Positions 8,433 to 14,330 of a stretch of 14,330 bases of DNA are shown here, in pieces. The notes under the pieces were generated by a model. That model did no database searches and was not told the origin of the DNA. It saw nothing but the letters and a program-made list of their open reading frames with translations. The position numbers were made by a program, and so were the translations under genes. The first letter of the stretch is position 1. The number at the start of each line of letters is the position of its first letter. Origin of the DNA: a virus (taxonomy: Duplodnaviria > Heunggongvirae > Uroviricota > Caudoviricetes); the IMG/VR virus record IMGVR_UViG_3300009169_000014, positions 172,741-187,070 of that record; one strand, written 5' to 3'.

Positions 8433-8448
8433 CGCCTGAGTATAGGCG
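8433..8448 (-). promoter_or_regulatory. Putative promoter: TATACT -10 box inside a 5-bp inverted repeat (CGCCT-ATACTC-AGGCG)
   Basis: TATACT occurs on the minus strand with GTGACG 16 nt upstream. The 9-mer CCTATACTC recurs upstream of the endolysin. Confidence 0.5.
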
Positions 8449-9548: not shown

Positions 9549-9762
9549 CGGGCGTAACCGAAAAACTCCGAGTAGTCGGAGCCTCCTCTACGATCATCTC
9601 GCAGTCGCAGTCCGCGAGCAGGTGCTCTTGAATCGTTTCTTTCCGGAAGGACGTAGCGTCGAATAGACACTTGTCCTCAACGTGGGTCCTGTGCGGCAGC
9701 TTGCAGTGGCCGCAGCGGTCTTCACAAGCCCCCTGCACCTTTCCCTTCCGGCTGGCGTGCAT
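9541..9762 (-). CDS. Small zinc-finger protein (C-x2-C-x6-H-x4-C), 73 aa
   Basis: It contains CGHCKLPHRTHVEDKCLFDATSF, paralogous to the neighbouring gene. The ATG at 9762 has AGGG 7 nt upstream. Confidence 0.72.
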   Translation of the reverse strand: MHASRKGKVQGACEDRCGHCKLPHRTHVEDKCLFDATSFRKETIQEHLLADCDCEMIVEEAPTTRSFSVTPGE

Positions 9763-9802
9763 GCGCAAACCCTACTCGTTTCTTCGCCCGAAAGCCAGGG
9801 TT

Positions 9803-9820
9803 CTATTAGGGTATCAGGAA
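9803..9820 (+). promoter_or_regulatory. Promoter-like motif, partial copy (TTAGGGTATCAG)
   Basis: It shares GGGTATCAG with the copy at 10263-10271 and lies 13 nt upstream of ATG 9825. Confidence 0.45.
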
Positions 9821-9824
9821 TGAC

Positions 9825-10013
9825 ATGACCCATCTAGACGAAGACGCTGAGAAGTACCTGGCGCAGGCCATCAACCTGCTCAACAAGACGGTCGACGTCA
9901 TCCGCGTCGGCCACCCCTACGCCCACGAGCTTTTAGGGATCATCGAGAAGCTCGAGAACTCGGAGTACATGAAGTGGCTGGCCAAAGCTCGCTACGAGGA
10001 GACCCACAAATGA
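9825..10013 (+). CDS. Hypothetical helical protein, 62 aa
   Basis: An AGGA RBS lies 5 nt upstream, codon third positions are strongly GC-biased, and the stop overlaps the next start (ATGA). Confidence 0.8.
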   Translation: MTHLDEDAEKYLAQAINLLNKTVDVIRVGHPYAHELLGIIEKLENSEYMKWLAKARYEETHK

Positions 10014-10228
10014 AGGCGAAACAGGATGAACTCAGCCGAAGACGGCGGCTCAACAAGGGCCAGTGCCCTACGCACGGTACCGGCCTCGAGCAAACGGGCG
10101 TCGCTACCGACAAACACGGCGTCCCTTTCGCGGACGTCGTGAGCTGCCCCCGGAAGGACTGCGACTACTGGACCGAGGTACGCCCTGGAACGAAGCTTTG
10201 GGACGCCCTCAAGGCCAGCGGAAGTTGA
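10010..10228 (+). CDS. Small zinc-ribbon-like protein (CPTH...CPRKDC), 72 aa
   Basis: The ATG at 10010 overlaps the previous TGA. It has C-x2-H and C-x4-C ligand pairs and is followed by a terminator. Confidence 0.8.
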   Translation: MKAKQDELSRRRRLNKGQCPTHGTGLEQTGVATDKHGVPFADVVSCPRKDCDYWTEVRPGTKLWDALKASGS

Positions 10229-10236
10229 TCGCCGCC

Positions 10237-10261
10237 TAGCCCCCGAAACGGGCTGTTTTTT
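10237..10261 (+). terminator. Rho-independent terminator
   Basis: TAGCCCCCGAAACGGGCTG forms a hairpin followed by T6, starting 9 nt after the stop codon. Confidence 0.65.
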
Positions 10262-10281
10262 GGGGTATCAGACTTTGAGCC
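10256..10281 (+). promoter_or_regulatory. Repeated promoter-like motif TTTTTTGGGGTATCAGACTTTGAGCC
   Basis: Related copies occur at 10976-11002, 11314-11338 and 11695-11718, all intergenic and in the same orientation. Confidence 0.65.
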
Positions 10282-10315
10282 ATAGATCTCTAACCCAGCT
10301 CAAAAGGAAAGAAAC

Positions 10316-10540
10316 ATGCCCCTCAAGAAAGAGACGGTCATTTTCGCGAAGGAATTCTTCATCGCCAGTTGCGCCGTACACCAGCGGGCCTGCCGGGTGG
10401 ATGACCCTGAAAGCACCTTTCGGGCACTGGCGCGATTGAGCTTGGACGCCGCGGTCATCTTCGAGCAGGAGCTCAAAGAGTACACGCCGTTCCCCGAGCC
10501 AGAAACTTCGGATGAGCCGGAGGCGGCCCGTGCCCAATAA
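10316..10540 (+). CDS. Hypothetical protein with an acidic tail, 74 aa
   Basis: An AAGGA RBS lies 7 nt upstream and codon third positions are GC-biased. Confidence 0.8.
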   Translation: MPLKKETVIFAKEFFIASCAVHQRACRVDDPESTFRALARLSLDAAVIFEQELKEYTPFPEPETSDEPEAARAQ

Positions 10541-10919
10541 GCCCGTCTACACGGCGATCTTTCTGGATGAGGGGTCCAAGGAGGCCTTGCTCAAGGCCTT
10601 TCCGCCCCTCCACCCCAAGGTGTTTGGGCACCACGTCACCCTGGTCTTCAAGCCCAACCCCGCCATGGTCCAGGCCTTCGACCCCTACCTCGAGAAAGAG
10701 GTCGAATTCGAGGTCGTTGGGGAGGCTTCCGACGCCCTCGGGCAGGCCGTCAAAGTCGCCCTTCCGGCCCCCTACCCGGACTTGAACCCGGAACAGCTGC
10801 ACCACGTCACCATCTCTTGCGTGAGCAGCCCGGTCTACTCGAACGAGCTGCTCAAACGGGGGTATGGGAAGGCTCCCCAGATCAAGCTCCGGGGGGTCGT
10901 CCGCCACTTTACCAAGTAA
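10530..10919 (+). CDS. 2H phosphoesterase superfamily protein (cyclic phosphodiesterase-like), 129 aa
   Basis: Two HxT motifs (GHHVTLVF and LHHVTISC) are followed by PVYSNELL, reminiscent of the Trl1 CPD-like branch. The GTG at 10530 has GGAGG 6 nt upstream. Confidence 0.85.
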   Translation: MPNKPVYTAIFLDEGSKEALLKAFPPLHPKVFGHHVTLVFKPNPAMVQAFDPYLEKEVEFEVVGEASDALGQAVKVALPAPYPDLNPEQLHHVTISCVSSPVYSNELLKRGYGKAPQIKLRGVVRHFTK

Positions 10920-10926
10920 CGCCGGT

Positions 10927-10955
10927 CCGGGGGCCCCCTAAAAGGGGGTCCCTGG
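10927..10955 (+). repeat. Conserved GC-rich hairpin H1 (CCGGGGGCCCCCT-AAA-AGGGGGTCCCTGG)
   Basis: It is a 13-bp stem with G-U pairs as its only non-Watson-Crick pairs, starts 8 nt after a TAA, and has no U-tract. Confidence 0.8.
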
Positions 10956-10964
10956 AAGGGCCAT

Positions 10965-11002
10965 AAAAGTGATCATTTTTTAGGGGTATGAGTCTTTGAA
11001 CC
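10965..11002 (+). promoter_or_regulatory. Palindrome AAAAGTGATCATTTTT plus promoter-like motif TTTTTTAGGGGTATGAGTCTTTGAACC
   Basis: The palindrome has one mismatch to the perfect 16-bp version at 11303-11318. The motif precedes the AAGGAG RBS of the gene at 11021. Confidence 0.65.
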
Positions 11003-11020
11003 CTAACAAAGGAGTCCGCC

Positions 11021-11257
11021 ATGCTGAAGAACCCTGAAGTGATCGCTCTGAGGTCGAAGCTGCTTAAAGCCCTGAAAGACGACCCTCCCTTTACCGGTTT
11101 CTTGCCGGGGCTGTTTTTCACGATCTGGCTGGCCCGGCGCCTTGTTCCGGTGGAAACAGCTCTCATCCTGCGGATAGAGGAGGCGCTGGGGAACGAAGGT
11201 TTGAGCTTGTGGCTGATCGAGCTCGTGGACGAGAGCGGTGTCGCCGAGAAAAATTAA
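11021..11257 (+). CDS. Hypothetical protein, 78 aa
   Basis: An AAGGAG RBS lies 7 nt upstream. The gene is flanked by the promoter-like motif and hairpin H2. Confidence 0.8.
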   Translation: MLKNPEVIALRSKLLKALKDDPPFTGFLPGLFFTIWLARRLVPVETALILRIEEALGNEGLSLWLIELVDESGVAEKN

Positions 11258-11263
11258 ACGCCC

Positions 11264-11293
11264 TCAGGGACCCTTCTTCGGAGGGGTCCCTGA
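11264..11293 (+). repeat. Conserved GC-rich hairpin H2 (TCAGGGACCCTTC-TTCG-GAGGGGTCCCTGA)
   Basis: It is a 13-bp stem with a cUUCGg tetraloop and one G-U pair, starting 7 nt after a TAA. Confidence 0.8.
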
Positions 11294-11302
11294 TGAATTC
11301 GT

Positions 11303-11338
11303 AAAAATGATCATTTTTACGGTATTAGACTATGAACC
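11303..11338 (+). promoter_or_regulatory. Perfect palindrome AAAAATGATCATTTTT plus promoter-like motif TTTTTACGGTATTAGACTATGAACC
   Basis: It has the same architecture as 10965-11002. Confidence 0.65.
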
Positions 11339-11350
11339 AGGATTCTGTCG

Positions 11351-11479
11351 ATGTCACAGGACAGGTCGCTGTACTGGTCCCTCTTCGTAGTCTACCGGTG
11401 CAAATACGGGAAGAGGGCGGGGATAGCTCGGCAGTTCCTCGATGAGGGCGATAACCCAAAGAGCCTCTTGGAGTCCTGA
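11351..11479 (+). CDS. Candidate 42-aa miniprotein (MSQDRSLYWSLFVVYRCKYGKRAGIARQFLDEGDNPKSLLES)
   Basis: It is below the ORF-track size range. AGGA lies 8 nt upstream, it follows the promoter-like motif, and 33/41 third positions are G/C by hand count. It conflicts with the antisense 79-aa ORF. Confidence 0.4.
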   Translation: MSQDRSLYWSLFVVYRCKYGKRAGIARQFLDEGDNPKSLLES

Positions 11480-11593
11480 ATAGGCCCCGCCGGGCCTTGA
11501 GTGTGTGACCGGCGAAGAGTTCAAGTAAGTCCTCCAGAGAGCCCCTGAACCTGGGGGTGTCGCGGCTAGAGGAAACTGCTTGATCTTGGGCAT
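11354..11593 (-). CDS. Candidate hypothetical protein, 79 aa
   Basis: AAGGA lies 10 nt upstream and the N-terminus (MPKIKQF) is plausible. GC3 is only about 58% by hand count, and it is antisense to the apparent local transcription unit. Confidence 0.4.
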   Translation of the reverse strand: MPKIKQFPLAATPPGSGALWRTYLNSSPVTHSRPGGAYSGLQEALWVIALIEELPSYPRPLPVFAPVDYEEGPVQRPVL

Positions 11594-11634
11594 GGAGTGG
11601 TTGTCCTTAAGGTAGGGGCGGTAGACCCCGTAAC

Positions 11635-11670
11635 GAAAAGTACCCCCTCCGCCGGGGGTGCTTTTCTTTT
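11635..11670. terminator. Rho-independent terminator, probably bidirectional
   Basis: GAAAAGTACCCCC-TCCGCC-GGGGGTGCTTTTC is followed by TTTT on the plus strand. The minus-strand reading is also followed by TTTTCGTT. Confidence 0.75.
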
Positions 11671-11694
11671 GCCTCCGATGATCAAAACCCCCTC

Positions 11695-11718
11695 TTTTTT
11701 GGGTACAAGATCTTGAGG
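11695..11718 (+). promoter_or_regulatory. Divergent copy of the promoter-like motif (TTTTTTGGGTACAAGATCTTGAGG)
   Basis: It has the T-tract, GGGTA, AGA and TTGAG elements, with a TGATCA core at 11679-11684, and lies upstream of the methyltransferase-like gene. Confidence 0.5.
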
Positions 11719-11746
11719 TTCAACTTCACTCAAGAGAGGGGAAAAC

Positions 11747-12622
11747 GTGTCGAAACCAAACCAGTATCCGGGGGAAACCGACGCAAAACGTCTTGCTCGA
11801 CTCGCCGTGTACCGGCGGGTAGAGGCGTTTCAGGCGCGGAACCTTCGGCAGGACAACGCTACTATCGTACTCGCAGGCCCTGAGGCCGGCGATCAAGGGT
11901 GTCTTCAGCATTTCCTCAAGACCCCAGCGGAACAGACGTACTTCGTGGACGTGAAGGAGAAGCAGGGGCTGACCCGAGCGAAGAAGCAGTTCCCCGGTGT
12001 CACGACGTACCTGGGGGACGTCAACGAGCTGCTCAAGGCCAAGCTGGAAGACCCCGCGGAAAAGGCAGCGCTTATCAACCTCGACTTCTGCGGGTATCTA
12101 TCCAAGGAGCGAGAAGAGATCGTAGCGAATGCCGCCCTGTCCCTCGTCGACTGGGGGATGATCTTCTACACCTTCTTTCGGGGGCGCGAATCCAAGGTTC
12201 TTCCCTTCTGGGACGACATCCTTCAGGCCCCCGCGAAGACCATGGACGGGAAACGGATGATCGGTACCGCCCAAGTCATGCAGAAGGCTCTGGGGCCCCG
12301 CTTCATCCTCGTCTTCTCCCTGCGGTACACCGGGGTTACTCCGGTAGGCCCAGGGAAGGTTCGGCTCGGGAGCATGGGCATCCTCGGATTCCAGCGGGTC
12401 CCTGCCAGTGCACAGCAGAGCGCCAACTGGACCCGCATGCTCGCAGCGCCGTCACCGTACGGCGGGTACGTCCCGAGCGACAAGAAGTTGTTGCAGGCGA
12501 ATTTGCGCGTTGAAGCTCTGGCCCTTCGGGACCGCGGCCTCAACTCGCACGAAGTAGGGGCTGTCTTGAACACTAGCCCTGGAACAGTAGCAGCGTGGTT
12601 TGCAAATCAGCACCGGTCGTAG
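11747..12622 (+). CDS. Class I SAM-dependent methyltransferase-like protein with a C-terminal helix-turn-helix, 291 aa
   Basis: The Rossmann-MTase motif order is present: IVLAGPEAGD (degenerate motif I), YFVD (acidic end of beta2), YLGDVNELL (GD) and LINLDFCG (motif IV). The C-terminal ALALRDRGLNSHEVGAVLNTSPGTVAAW is HTH-like. The GTG start has a GAGAGGGG RBS. Confidence 0.75.
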   Translation: MSKPNQYPGETDAKRLARLAVYRRVEAFQARNLRQDNATIVLAGPEAGDQGCLQHFLKTPAEQTYFVDVKEKQGLTRAKKQFPGVTTYLGDVNELLKAKLEDPAEKAALINLDFCGYLSKEREEIVANAALSLVDWGMIFYTFFRGRESKVLPFWDDILQAPAKTMDGKRMIGTAQVMQKALGPRFILVFSLRYTGVTPVGPGKVRLGSMGILGFQRVPASAQQSANWTRMLAAPSPYGGYVPSDKKLLQANLRVEALALRDRGLNSHEVGAVLNTSPGTVAAWFANQHRS

Positions 12623-12671
12623 CAGTCCAACCCGTATGGAAACGCCCTGTAGGGCGAAAAAGGAAATGGCC

Positions 12672-13424
12672 ATGGCCAATGGAGTGACTGGATTGTCAGG
12701 AAAGAACTGGGGCGAAGAACTGGCGAATCAACGGATCGACTTTCTCGGAACGGAACTCAAGAATGGGGGCCGTGGTCTGACCTTCAGTGAACTCCGGGAT
12801 CTGACCGTCGAGAAAGTTCCGGGGGGCCCTCGGATGTCGGAGAAGCTTGTCAAGAAGGTCGTGTACGGCGTCATGACGACCGGCAAGGTTCCGATGACGG
12901 CGAAGAGCGCCTGGGAAACGTTGCTTCCCACAGGGAATGGGGCGCGCAAATGGGAAGAGGAGCGGGAGAAGGCGCGCCTCTCCTTCCTGAGTCAGAAGGA
13001 CTCCCGAGCTCGATACAGCCAGAAGATCAAAAAGCTGGGGGTGAAGACGCTCTCGGAGGCTGGGGTGAAGCTCTGTAAGCGTGGGCACGAGCGCACGCCG
13101 GACAACGTCAGTAAAGGCGGCGGCTGCAAGAAGTGCAGCTCCATGCTGGCACAGGCGCGGTACGGCAAGGCCCCTCGGAAAGCGAAGAAGACGGTCTCCG
13201 AGGCTCGCATGGAGTCGTTCGAGGTCCTGCCGGAGAACATCCGGCGGAAGATGGCGGTGGCGCCCGGCGAGATCGCCGAGTCCGTGCTGCTCCAGGTGGA
13301 CAAGCTGCGGAAGCTGATGGAGCTCCAGCAGTACAGCCGCATCGAGATCGTCATCACGGGCGAAGGACAGCCCGCTGTCATCAGCATCCTGCCCGCGGCT
13401 ACCCCCATCGTGGTACACCGGTAA
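12672..13424 (+). CDS. Basic putative DNA-binding protein with a C-x3-H-x12-C-x2-C zinc motif, 250 aa
   Basis: The ATG at 12672 has AGGA 7 nt upstream, avoiding overlap with the previous gene. It contains CKRGHERTPDNVSKGGGCKKC at 13074-13136 and is Lys/Arg-rich. Confidence 0.75.
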   Translation: MANGVTGLSGKNWGEELANQRIDFLGTELKNGGRGLTFSELRDLTVEKVPGGPRMSEKLVKKVVYGVMTTGKVPMTAKSAWETLLPTGNGARKWEEEREKARLSFLSQKDSRARYSQKIKKLGVKTLSEAGVKLCKRGHERTPDNVSKGGGCKKCSSMLAQARYGKAPRKAKKTVSEARMESFEVLPENIRRKMAVAPGEIAESVLLQVDKLRKLMELQQYSRIEIVITGEGQPAVISILPAATPIVVHR

Positions 13425-13425
13425 A

Positions 13426-14280
13426 ATGGTGGCCTATTCCGTCGATGAGGTGACAGAGTTCGTTCAGCAGTTCTTTCTCGACGATGACAAGGCCTCGATC
13501 CATGCGTGTGTCCGGGATGCCCTCGACTTGGGTATCCCGGTCACACCGGAGCAGGTCTCTGGGATTCGTCGAACGATGCGGCAGAAGGGCGTGACCAAGC
13601 TGTCGCTCGTTACCGCCGGTCCTGCCGCAGACAAGCCTCCCGTGGGGATGAAGGTTGGATCCGTTTCCGGGTATGCCCGGAATCCACCCCAGCCTCCTCA
13701 GTGGTTCATCGATAAGCAGAAACGGGAGGACGAGCTTTTCCTGCGTCTGCAAGCCGAGCCGGACGAGCCGGATGAGCTCCCCGTCGAAAAGAAGGTGAAG
13801 AAGGCAGCCACCGACGCAATGCTCGAGCGTCGGCGGTACTTCGAATCCGTTCTACTGGAGGACCCGCTACAGACGGTGGTGGAGGCGATGACCAAGGTGA
13901 AGGTGAAGTTCGGAACCAGTGTGGATCCAGGCTTCGCTGTACGCACCTTGAACCTGGTGAGGGAACTCGCCCAAGTCACAAAGGAGATGGTCGTGAAGAA
14001 ACGCGAGAACAAACCCCTCACCCACCGGATCAGTCTCCCGGACGTCAAAGTGAACCCGCCGCCAGCGACGGTCGTGCCACGTCCGCTGTCGAAGGAGCCG
14101 CCGAGACCGGTGGAAGACGAGCTGGTAGCCCTCATCTACGGGGCAACCAGGCGAATCATCACGAAGGAGGAGCTTGGGGAGGAGGTCCAGAAGCTCACCC
14201 AGAGCGGGGTCACCGGCATCCGGGTCTACGCCCTCAAGGAAATGAAGATGACGACCAAAGTCGTCATCTCCTTCGAGTAA
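13426..14280 (+). CDS. Hypothetical protein with possible tandem helical DNA-binding domains, 284 aa
   Basis: The ATG lies 1 nt after the upstream TAA, third positions are GC-biased, Pro-rich linkers separate folded segments, and hairpin H3 follows. Confidence 0.8.
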   Translation: MVAYSVDEVTEFVQQFFLDDDKASIHACVRDALDLGIPVTPEQVSGIRRTMRQKGVTKLSLVTAGPAADKPPVGMKVGSVSGYARNPPQPPQWFIDKQKREDELFLRLQAEPDEPDELPVEKKVKKAATDAMLERRRYFESVLLEDPLQTVVEAMTKVKVKFGTSVDPGFAVRTLNLVRELAQVTKEMVVKKRENKPLTHRISLPDVKVNPPPATVVPRPLSKEPPRPVEDELVALIYGATRRIITKEELGEEVQKLTQSGVTGIRVYALKEMKMTTKVVISFE

Positions 14281-14287
14281 TTCGACT

Positions 14288-14317
14288 CCCGGGGGCCCTC
14301 GAAAGGGGGTCCCTGGG
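14288..14317 (+). repeat. Conserved GC-rich hairpin H3 (CCCGGGGGCCCTC-GAAA-GGGGGTCCCTGGG)
   Basis: It is a 13-bp stem with a GAAA tetraloop and G-U wobble pairs only, starts 8 nt after a TAA, and is nearly identical to H1. Confidence 0.8.
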
Positions 14318-14330
14318 GAGGAGTAGCCGC

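Follow-up and report, generated by a model that had tools for sequence, protein, structure and literature searches.

Do the hairpins and promoters that recur at the end of an uncultured phage genome only regulate the small genes between them, or do they also mark the joints where the gain and loss of these genes occur? We addressed this question with a stretch of 14,330 nucleotides (nt), hereafter the window, which corresponds to bases 172,741-187,070, i.e. the right-hand terminal 14.3 kb, of a linear IMG/VR phage record of 187,070 bp and 60% G+C (called G000). An earlier note on this DNA had described, at window positions 10229-14330, a chain of hairpins, palindromes, promoters and terminators that delimit small gene modules, and had likened it to the promoter-early stem-loops (PeSLs). 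These are known in the T4-like myoviruses RB49/phi1, PST/T4 and nt-1/KVP40 (Arbiol et al. 2010, PMC2839356; Comeau et al. 2014, PMC4122927). Having compared the region with its relatives, we consider it likely that it forms part of a hyperplastic early-gene array, and that its hairpin-promoter units act as PeSL-like cassette boundaries and as portable homology.

The composite hairpin-promoter unit

All the elements and the gene layout that the note had described were present where it had placed them. The elements bound modules of one to three genes, all on the plus strand, and are as follows (window positions):

9809-9824, plus strand: weak copy of the promoter core (GGTATCAG), 8 nt ahead of the ATG of an open reading frame (ORF) of 62 amino acids (aa), at the left edge of the plus-strand early block
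10237-10262, plus strand: terminator T1, a weak hairpin (6-bp stem, 7-nt loop, -8.5 kcal/mol) with a six-T run
10243-10281, plus strand: promoter P1, with GGTATCAG at 10264-10271 and then ACTTTGAGCC; the T-run of T1 doubles as its T-tract
10927-10955, plus strand: hairpin H1, 7 nt past a TAA stop; its G.U pairs form on the plus strand only
10963-11002, plus strand: promoter part of unit U1, with TAAAA, GTGATCA, the T-tract, GGTATGAG and TCTTTGAACC; homology with relatives stops at 10999-11003
11264-11293, plus strand: hairpin H2, a 13-bp stem closed by a UUCG loop
11300-11338, plus strand: promoter part of unit U2, with a perfect palindrome at 11303-11318 and GGTATTAG at 11321
11635-11675, plus strand: terminator T4, a 13-bp stem and then a T-rich tail (-24.3 kcal/mol, z -6.2)
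11679-11719, plus strand: promoter P4, with a TGATCA core at 11679-11684, the T-tract and GGTACAAG at 11702
14286-14320, plus strand: hairpin H3, with a GAAA loop, the right boundary of a three-gene module; its promoter partner is at bases 92-194 of the contig start

Between these elements lie a 74-aa ORF and a gene for a 2H-like phosphoesterase domain protein (after P1), a 78-aa ORF (cassette 1, after U1), a small cassette 2 (after U2) and the three genes of cassette 3 (after P4).

We observed that the promoter pattern GGTAYNAG-N4-TGA occurs four times between 10229 and 14330 (at 10264, 10985, 11321 and 11702, all on the plus strand), where 0.03 copies are expected by chance, and none of 200 shuffles reached four copies. 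Over the whole genome, about 11 copies of the core fall in the roughly 12 kb that span the end and the start of G000, with isolated copies at 19.7, 61.1 and 153.5 kb. All the copies were intergenic and on the same strand as the next gene, and the strong ones were all inside the early array across the contig ends. Using a neighbouring 593-aa protein as a lead, we obtained two circularly assembled relatives (G001 and G002, 188.6 and 190.3 kb, 76-77% identity). In the three complete genomes (G000, G001 and G002) the strand counts of the motif were 9:0, 15:0 and 0:8, and the reversed pattern, used as a control, gave no copies in G001 and G002. The weak core at 9809-9824 has orthologous copies in G001, G002 and two related contigs (L144 and L145), and a variant of the motif (GGGATAAGAACCTTGA) was present in a 204-kb contig, L140.

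The consensus obtained was C-n-TAAAA-N7-TTTTT-nGGG-TATnAG-wcTTTGArCC. The position matrix (44 distinct sites from eight sources) showed conservation of C at -23, TAAAA at -21 to -17, TTTTT at -9 to -5, T at +9 and rCC at +13 to +15, all of which lay outside the fixed letters of the search pattern. The palindrome AAARTGATCATTTT, found at 10966 and 11304 (none expected from shuffles), had been listed in the earlier note as an element of its own. We read it instead as mainly the A-tract and T-tract of the promoter, because only those tracts are conserved across the 44 sites, and a separate operator was rejected as the principal interpretation on the same ground. The GATC centre is kept only by the subfamily of H-type units, and has a variable register in the other sites. 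The TGATCA core is nevertheless the crossover point in one related contig, L152 (see below).

The hairpins H1, H2 and H3 share the arm GGGGTCCCTG (at 10945, 11283 and 14306; 0.06 copies expected from shuffles). Their plus-strand RNAs were predicted to fold at -35.8, -26.1 and -29.9 kcal/mol (z -4.5, -4.6 and -3.0), and the complementary strands at only -27.0, -21.5 and -19.0 kcal/mol, since the stems contain G.U pairs. A set of 15 related hairpins from eight sources had stems of 11-14 bp, mostly UUCG or GAAA loops and folding energies of -26 to -37 kcal/mol. They begin 5-8 nt past stop codons, and their 3' arm, GGGGTCCCTGG, is nearly invariant while the 5' arm is variable. T1 and T4, as predicted from the sequence, are canonical hairpin-plus-T-run terminators; T1 is conserved in G001 and in the contigs L146 and L147.

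Hairpin and promoter together form a unit of about 75 nt, with a mean column identity of 78% over 14 aligned copies. Unit identities range from 58 to 89% within and between related genomes, with exact common runs of 10-25 nt; inside one genome the units are 58-77% identical to each other. A covariance model of the full unit found two high-scoring copies per genome along with weaker terminator-promoter variants, all in this region, and a search of Rfam gave no match above the gathering score.

The last of these units is divided by the contig ends. H3, at the end of G000, and the promoter at bases 160-195 of its start are orthologous to one long unit of G001, indicating that the two ends of G000 adjoin in the real genome. 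The first ~150 nt of G000 consist of G and C homopolymer runs that resemble an assembly artefact; beyond them the same type of array resumes, reaching to ~7.4 kb.

Breakpoints and junctions at the units

Apart from G001 and G002, the relatives comprised six related metagenome fragments retained from a pattern scan (the other entries among its 119 matches were mostly chance), and seven further contigs reached through homologues of the 2H protein, of the 291-aa protein of cassette 3 and of one G001 cassette gene. A nucleotide search of the phage collection with window positions 9700-14330 gave no match, and no relatives came from pattern searches of IMG/VR that used the 291-aa and 284-aa proteins of cassette 3. 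With the composite hairpin-promoter pattern, only G001 and G002 were confirmed in IMG/VR; six single matches were discarded, as they either lacked the stricter promoter pattern or, in one case (L018), lay inside unrelated AT-rich sequence.

When ten related genomes and contigs were compared in pairs, the 300 nt upstream of U1 (the 2H gene) were homologous in 45/45 pairs, while the 330 nt downstream were homologous in 2/45. With the alignments anchored on the U1 core, the mean pairwise identity was ~0.8 up to +19 and 0.24-0.36 thereafter, a drop to ~0.25 that took place within 20 nt of the core. The closest relative, L147, matched 1,173 nt of the window (four genes, T1-P1 and U1) at 89.4% identity, and this similarity ended entirely at +15 of U1, i.e. 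at window position 10999. The next stretch of L147 was 89% identical to a G002 gene; L147 is therefore a mosaic.

The same was seen at the level of gene order. In a synteny map of G000, G001 and G002, the stretch bounded by the 2H gene and a 161-aa gene, both of them conserved, differed in gene content in every genome. The ~75-nt units were the only islands common to this variable array, and the islands spanned exactly from the 5' arm of the hairpin to TTGARCC. The number of genes from U1 to the unit ahead of the 161-aa gene ranged from one (in L146) to about nine.

We also found natural junctions between one unit and another. A G001 cassette (promoter, 199-aa gene, hairpin) is missing from the closely related contig L085, which has a single hairpin at this place. 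The left flank of that hairpin shared 75% identity with the flank on the same side of Hb, the second G001 hairpin (background 55-57%), and its right flank shared 96% with the corresponding flank of Hc, the third (background 50-54%). From these flanks, the crossover between the two arrangements would have occurred inside the hairpin. At the same locus the contig L142 carries, besides the 199-aa cassette, one more unit together with a 63-aa gene, giving three states with zero, one and two cassettes. A third junction is in L152, where the order is 2H gene, hairpin, GTAAAAGTGATC, P4 sequence and methyltransferase-like gene. Here the 2H gene, hairpin and TAAAAGTGATC are joined to P4 and the methyltransferase-like gene at the TGATCA that is common to U1 (10970-10975) and P4 (11679-11684), and window positions 10976-11684, i.e. 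the 78-aa cassette and cassette 2, are missing. This picture matches the case of RB49 ORF192 versus phi1 (PMC2839356).

The earlier note had suggested aligning related genomes to see whether breakpoints of gene gain and loss fall in these elements; they do so at U1, and junctions from unit to unit exist. It had also reasoned that, if the idea were wrong, the gene content between the elements would be invariant, no recombinant junctions would be found and the elements would be limited to these few copies. This is mostly not what we observed, because gene content between the elements is highly variable, and the junctions were found. As to the count of elements, there are ~11 promoter units in ~12 kb and only two or three full hairpin-promoter units per genome.

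Mechanism, rival explanations and known systems

In the mechanism that we propose, each module of one to three genes would be a separate transcription unit, which would start ~15-20 nt after the promoter core and end at a canonical terminator or at a very stable hairpin of the sense-strand RNA (11-14 bp stem, UUCG or GAAA loop). A unit would stop the upstream transcript and start the next one, as its anatomy suggests; both the promoter and the terminator function are putative assignments. Recombination from unit to unit, or replication slippage, within one genome would delete the intervening cassette. Recombination between the units of co-infecting relatives would insert or swap cassettes together with their expression signals, as the natural junctions suggest. 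Mini-circles might also arise by recombination at the units.

Several observations weigh against this proposal, besides the small number of full units. Between the closest genome pair (G001 and L085), four of five indels lay at gene boundaries free of units (e.g. a ribosome-binding site, ATGA overlap or stop codon), and the units are therefore not the sole route of change. Identity among the units of a single genome can fall to 58%, which leaves only short usable homology. Searches of the phage gave no recombinase of the RecA, tyrosine or serine type, and the H-type hairpins have no U-tract. The 2H domain has three different N-terminal partners that join at the start of the domain, with no unit at the junction. 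Finally, selection for intact expression signals alone would likewise put the surviving breakpoints beside the units.

This last point leads to a different explanation, in which the units are regulatory signals only, and genes turn over by illegitimate or microhomology recombination at any gene boundary while selection keeps promoters and terminators intact. The G001/L085 indels mentioned above and a swap of the ORF before the 2H domain, all at unit-free boundaries with just a ribosome-binding site or ATGA as microhomology, are as this explanation would have it, and so is the limited identity (58-77%) among the units of one genome. It does not, however, account well for three junctions that lie inside units at exact common sequence (hairpin arm or TGATCA core), or for the locus at which zero, one or two cassettes each carry a complete unit. 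Moreover, many independent genome pairs break at U1 within the same few bases. We thus regard a purely regulatory role as unlikely, and prefer the reading of the units as cassette boundaries with portable homology.

An integron-like system, with the hairpins as attC-like sites of a dedicated site-specific recombinase, is brought to mind by the near-invariant 3' arm beside a variable 5' arm and by cassettes that are added singly at one locus. We consider it very improbable. The Pfam families of tyrosine (PF00589) and serine (PF00239) recombinases were not found in G000, G001 or G002 although the positive controls worked, the crossovers fall at three different places of the unit (hairpin, TGATCA core and promoter +15), and each cassette carries its own promoter, unlike integron cassettes. 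Least credible of all is that the repeats reflect chance similarity or an artefact of assembly at a contig end. The window does lie at the end of its contig, whose first ~150 nt are rich in homopolymers; yet the shuffle controls give only 0.03-0.06 expected copies, and independent assemblies refute an artefact, since the same units recur in both circular assemblies and in eleven metagenome contigs of independent origin.

How close, then, is the array to the PeSLs of T4-type phages? In both, a stem-loop and a promoter form a composite unit that lies in hyperplastic regions, mostly upstream of ORFans. The size is also alike (~75-100 bp for PeSLs, which are conserved over roughly 100 bp; ~75 nt here), and the stems in both have G/C tracts with G-T pairs. 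In both (here at the G001/L085/L142 locus, between G000 and L152, and at the U1 boundary), the genes that differ between close relatives are flanked by units, and a single chimeric unit is left where a gene is missing. The expression signals also travel with each cassette in both. The differences are that the sequence is unrelated, as is the lineage, which encodes its own beta/beta' polymerase and sigma factor, and that the hairpin here is upstream of the whole promoter, with UUCG or GNRA loops and no U-tract. In T4-type PeSLs the stem-loop is a terminator or attenuator and mini-circles arise from exchange between neighbouring units; for the units described here these properties, like promoter activity, are putative.

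The array also resembles integrons, as both are arrays of small cassettes with imperfect hairpin-forming repeats at their boundaries, and in both the number of cassettes at one locus can vary. It differs from them in that no IntI-type integrase was found (in G000, G001 and G002) and the crossover points vary. In addition, every cassette here is preceded by its own promoter-like unit, while integron cassettes are mostly promoterless and share a common promoter.

The earlier note had put the array forward both as an independent system of unrelated sequence and as an undescribed one. The comparative data bear out the first, and support the view that the same PeSL architecture may have arisen from unrelated sequence in a very different lineage that encodes its own RNA polymerase. 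The second has to be given up; since the principle is that of the published PeSLs, the kind of system has already been described. What is new here is the lineage, the sequence and the promoter type. In the searchable literature, PeSL-mediated shuffling is documented only in T4-like phages, and the term is found chiefly in the two papers that founded it and in citations made in passing. The present case lends support to the view that terminator-promoter units serve large phages generally as a means of exchanging accessory genes while expression stays intact. It also makes a precise promoter consensus available for an uncultured lineage, and offers the array as a defined hot spot for collecting new accessory genes from metagenomes, probably for counter-defence or host takeover.

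The phage lineage, its polymerase and the cassette genes

In each of G000, G001 and G002, an open frame of 1,600-1,900 aa contains an RNA polymerase beta region of bacterial type, and each of them encodes a sigma-70-family protein. Judged by the polymerase, the closest relatives in culture are Salmonella phage Arash and Vibrio phages D69, D181 and D148 (36% identity). No match to T4 Gp23 was found for the phage in a search that had no positive control, and the lineage of G000 is not of the T4-type myovirus kind that carries T4-type PeSLs.

The promoter of T4-type PeSLs has the host sigma-70 consensus and is strong and early. The promoter described here does not fit TTGACA-N17-TATAAT. The matrix gives TAAAA-N16-TATnAG, in which the -10-like box TATnAG ends in G instead of the near-universal T, and a scan with the sigma-70 consensus placed no sigma-70-type site at the units. 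Which polymerase reads the motif is thus a question of its own. We see the chances that it is the host polymerase as evenly balanced. More tentatively, the motif could be read by a virion-delivered multisubunit RNA polymerase that the phage itself encodes, with the phage sigma factor, the cassettes then being host-independent plug-in modules exchanged within the lineage.

The -10-like box that ends in G favours the phage enzyme, and so does the position of the polymerase gene itself, which sits behind a different, leaderless TATACT-type motif among minus-strand late genes. In phiKZ-like and N4-like phages, arrays of conserved early promoters are read by virion-delivered phage RNA polymerases. 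The present array is like these in having a highly conserved motif, not host-like, repeated ahead of many small early genes. In the virions of Arash, mass spectrometry found the beta subunit to be the most abundant protein, with beta' and a sigma factor abundant too (PMC10585845), which makes it plausible that an injected phage enzyme carries out early transcription. On the other side, the motif was not enriched in Arash or D69, and the idea that it is a polymerase promoter of the whole lineage is accordingly unsupported.

A second promoter-like class was seen in G000, namely CCTATACT with an ATG 6-8 nt later, a distance that implies leaderless mRNAs. Of its 16 copies, 13 are on the minus strand and 12 are intergenic; two lie in the window at 8439 and 9124 (genome positions 181179 and 181864) and 14 elsewhere. 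One copy, at 61094 on the minus strand, is directly ahead of the RNA polymerase ORF. The early-type motif at 61,111 was considered as the driver of the polymerase operon, but this proved wrong, as the polymerase ORF is on the minus strand behind the CCTATACT-type site.

The genes and cassettes between the elements are the following:

10316-10540, plus strand: 74-aa ORF of no known family, overlapping the start of the 2H ORF; the 89%-identical stretch of L147 has an ORF of equal length
10512-10919, plus strand: 2H-like phosphoesterase domain protein with two HxT motifs (phrog_36523), the conserved left anchor of the variable array
11021-11257, plus strand: cassette 1, a 78-aa ORFan; neither G001 and G002 nor the other related contigs compared gave a match
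11339-11634, plus strand: body of cassette 2, with a candidate 42-aa plus-strand ORF at 11351-11479 and a candidate 79-aa antisense ORF at 11354-11593
11747-14280, plus strand: cassette 3, a module of three genes for proteins of 291, 252 and 284 aa

The 2H label rests on the two HxT motifs and on a single distant homologue, among the 32 found, that carries PF08302. Searches of PDB sequences with the 2H protein and with a profile of the methyltransferase-like protein gave nothing clear. The 2H domain (~130 aa) has a fused 79-aa N-terminal part in G001, a fused 128-aa part rich in charged residues in G002, and a separate, overlapping 74-aa ORF in G000 and L147. We also considered whether the 74-aa ORF and the 2H ORF are a gene split by a frameshift; this was rejected, as the 74-aa ORF has no similarity to the N-termini of the G001 and G002 2H proteins. 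In one of the four unit-free indels between G001 (L008, ~19048-19838) and L085, an ORF was exchanged with gene precision, its exact limits being a conserved ribosome-binding site and a conserved stop codon with its terminator; there is no hairpin-promoter unit there.

Cassette 2 (11321-11675) could be aligned with positions 5675-6030 of L145, a 171-kb relative. The promoter, the last ~45 nt and the terminator are conserved, the terminator stems differ in sequence, and the body has diverged almost past alignment; no gene was called at this place in L145. A structured RNA was considered for this cassette and found no support (fold z -0.88).

The trio of cassette 3 is also present in the 204-kb contig L140 (GCA_040384205.1), at positions 10001-12321, with identities of 53, 44 and 36%. 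Its 291-aa protein had been called a methyltransferase in the earlier note. The predicted structure (predicted local distance difference test, pLDDT, 88) agrees with this name, as it matches only class I S-adenosylmethionine (SAM) methyltransferases, but there was no Pfam methyltransferase match, nor any Pfam domain apart from a weak helix-turn-helix at the C-terminus. The 252-aa protein had a weak match to an HNH-endonuclease PHROG (E 0.005). The other cassette genes are ORFans without Pfam or PHROG functions, and PADLOC gave no matches for six cassette proteins.

Two further observations concern the wider genome. Beside the sigma factor gene, a SNF2-family helicase, a PD-(D/E)XK nuclease and a ParB-like protein are encoded in a row (L141:4403-9610, genome 64.4-69.6 kb); these are possibly parts of the phage's own recombination or replication machinery. 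The hexamer CGATCG is absent from all 187,070 bp of G000, where a second-order Markov estimate gives ~114 expected copies, and GATC overall is mildly under-represented (809 found, 1088 expected). The missing CGATCG looks like avoidance of a PvuI-type restriction site.

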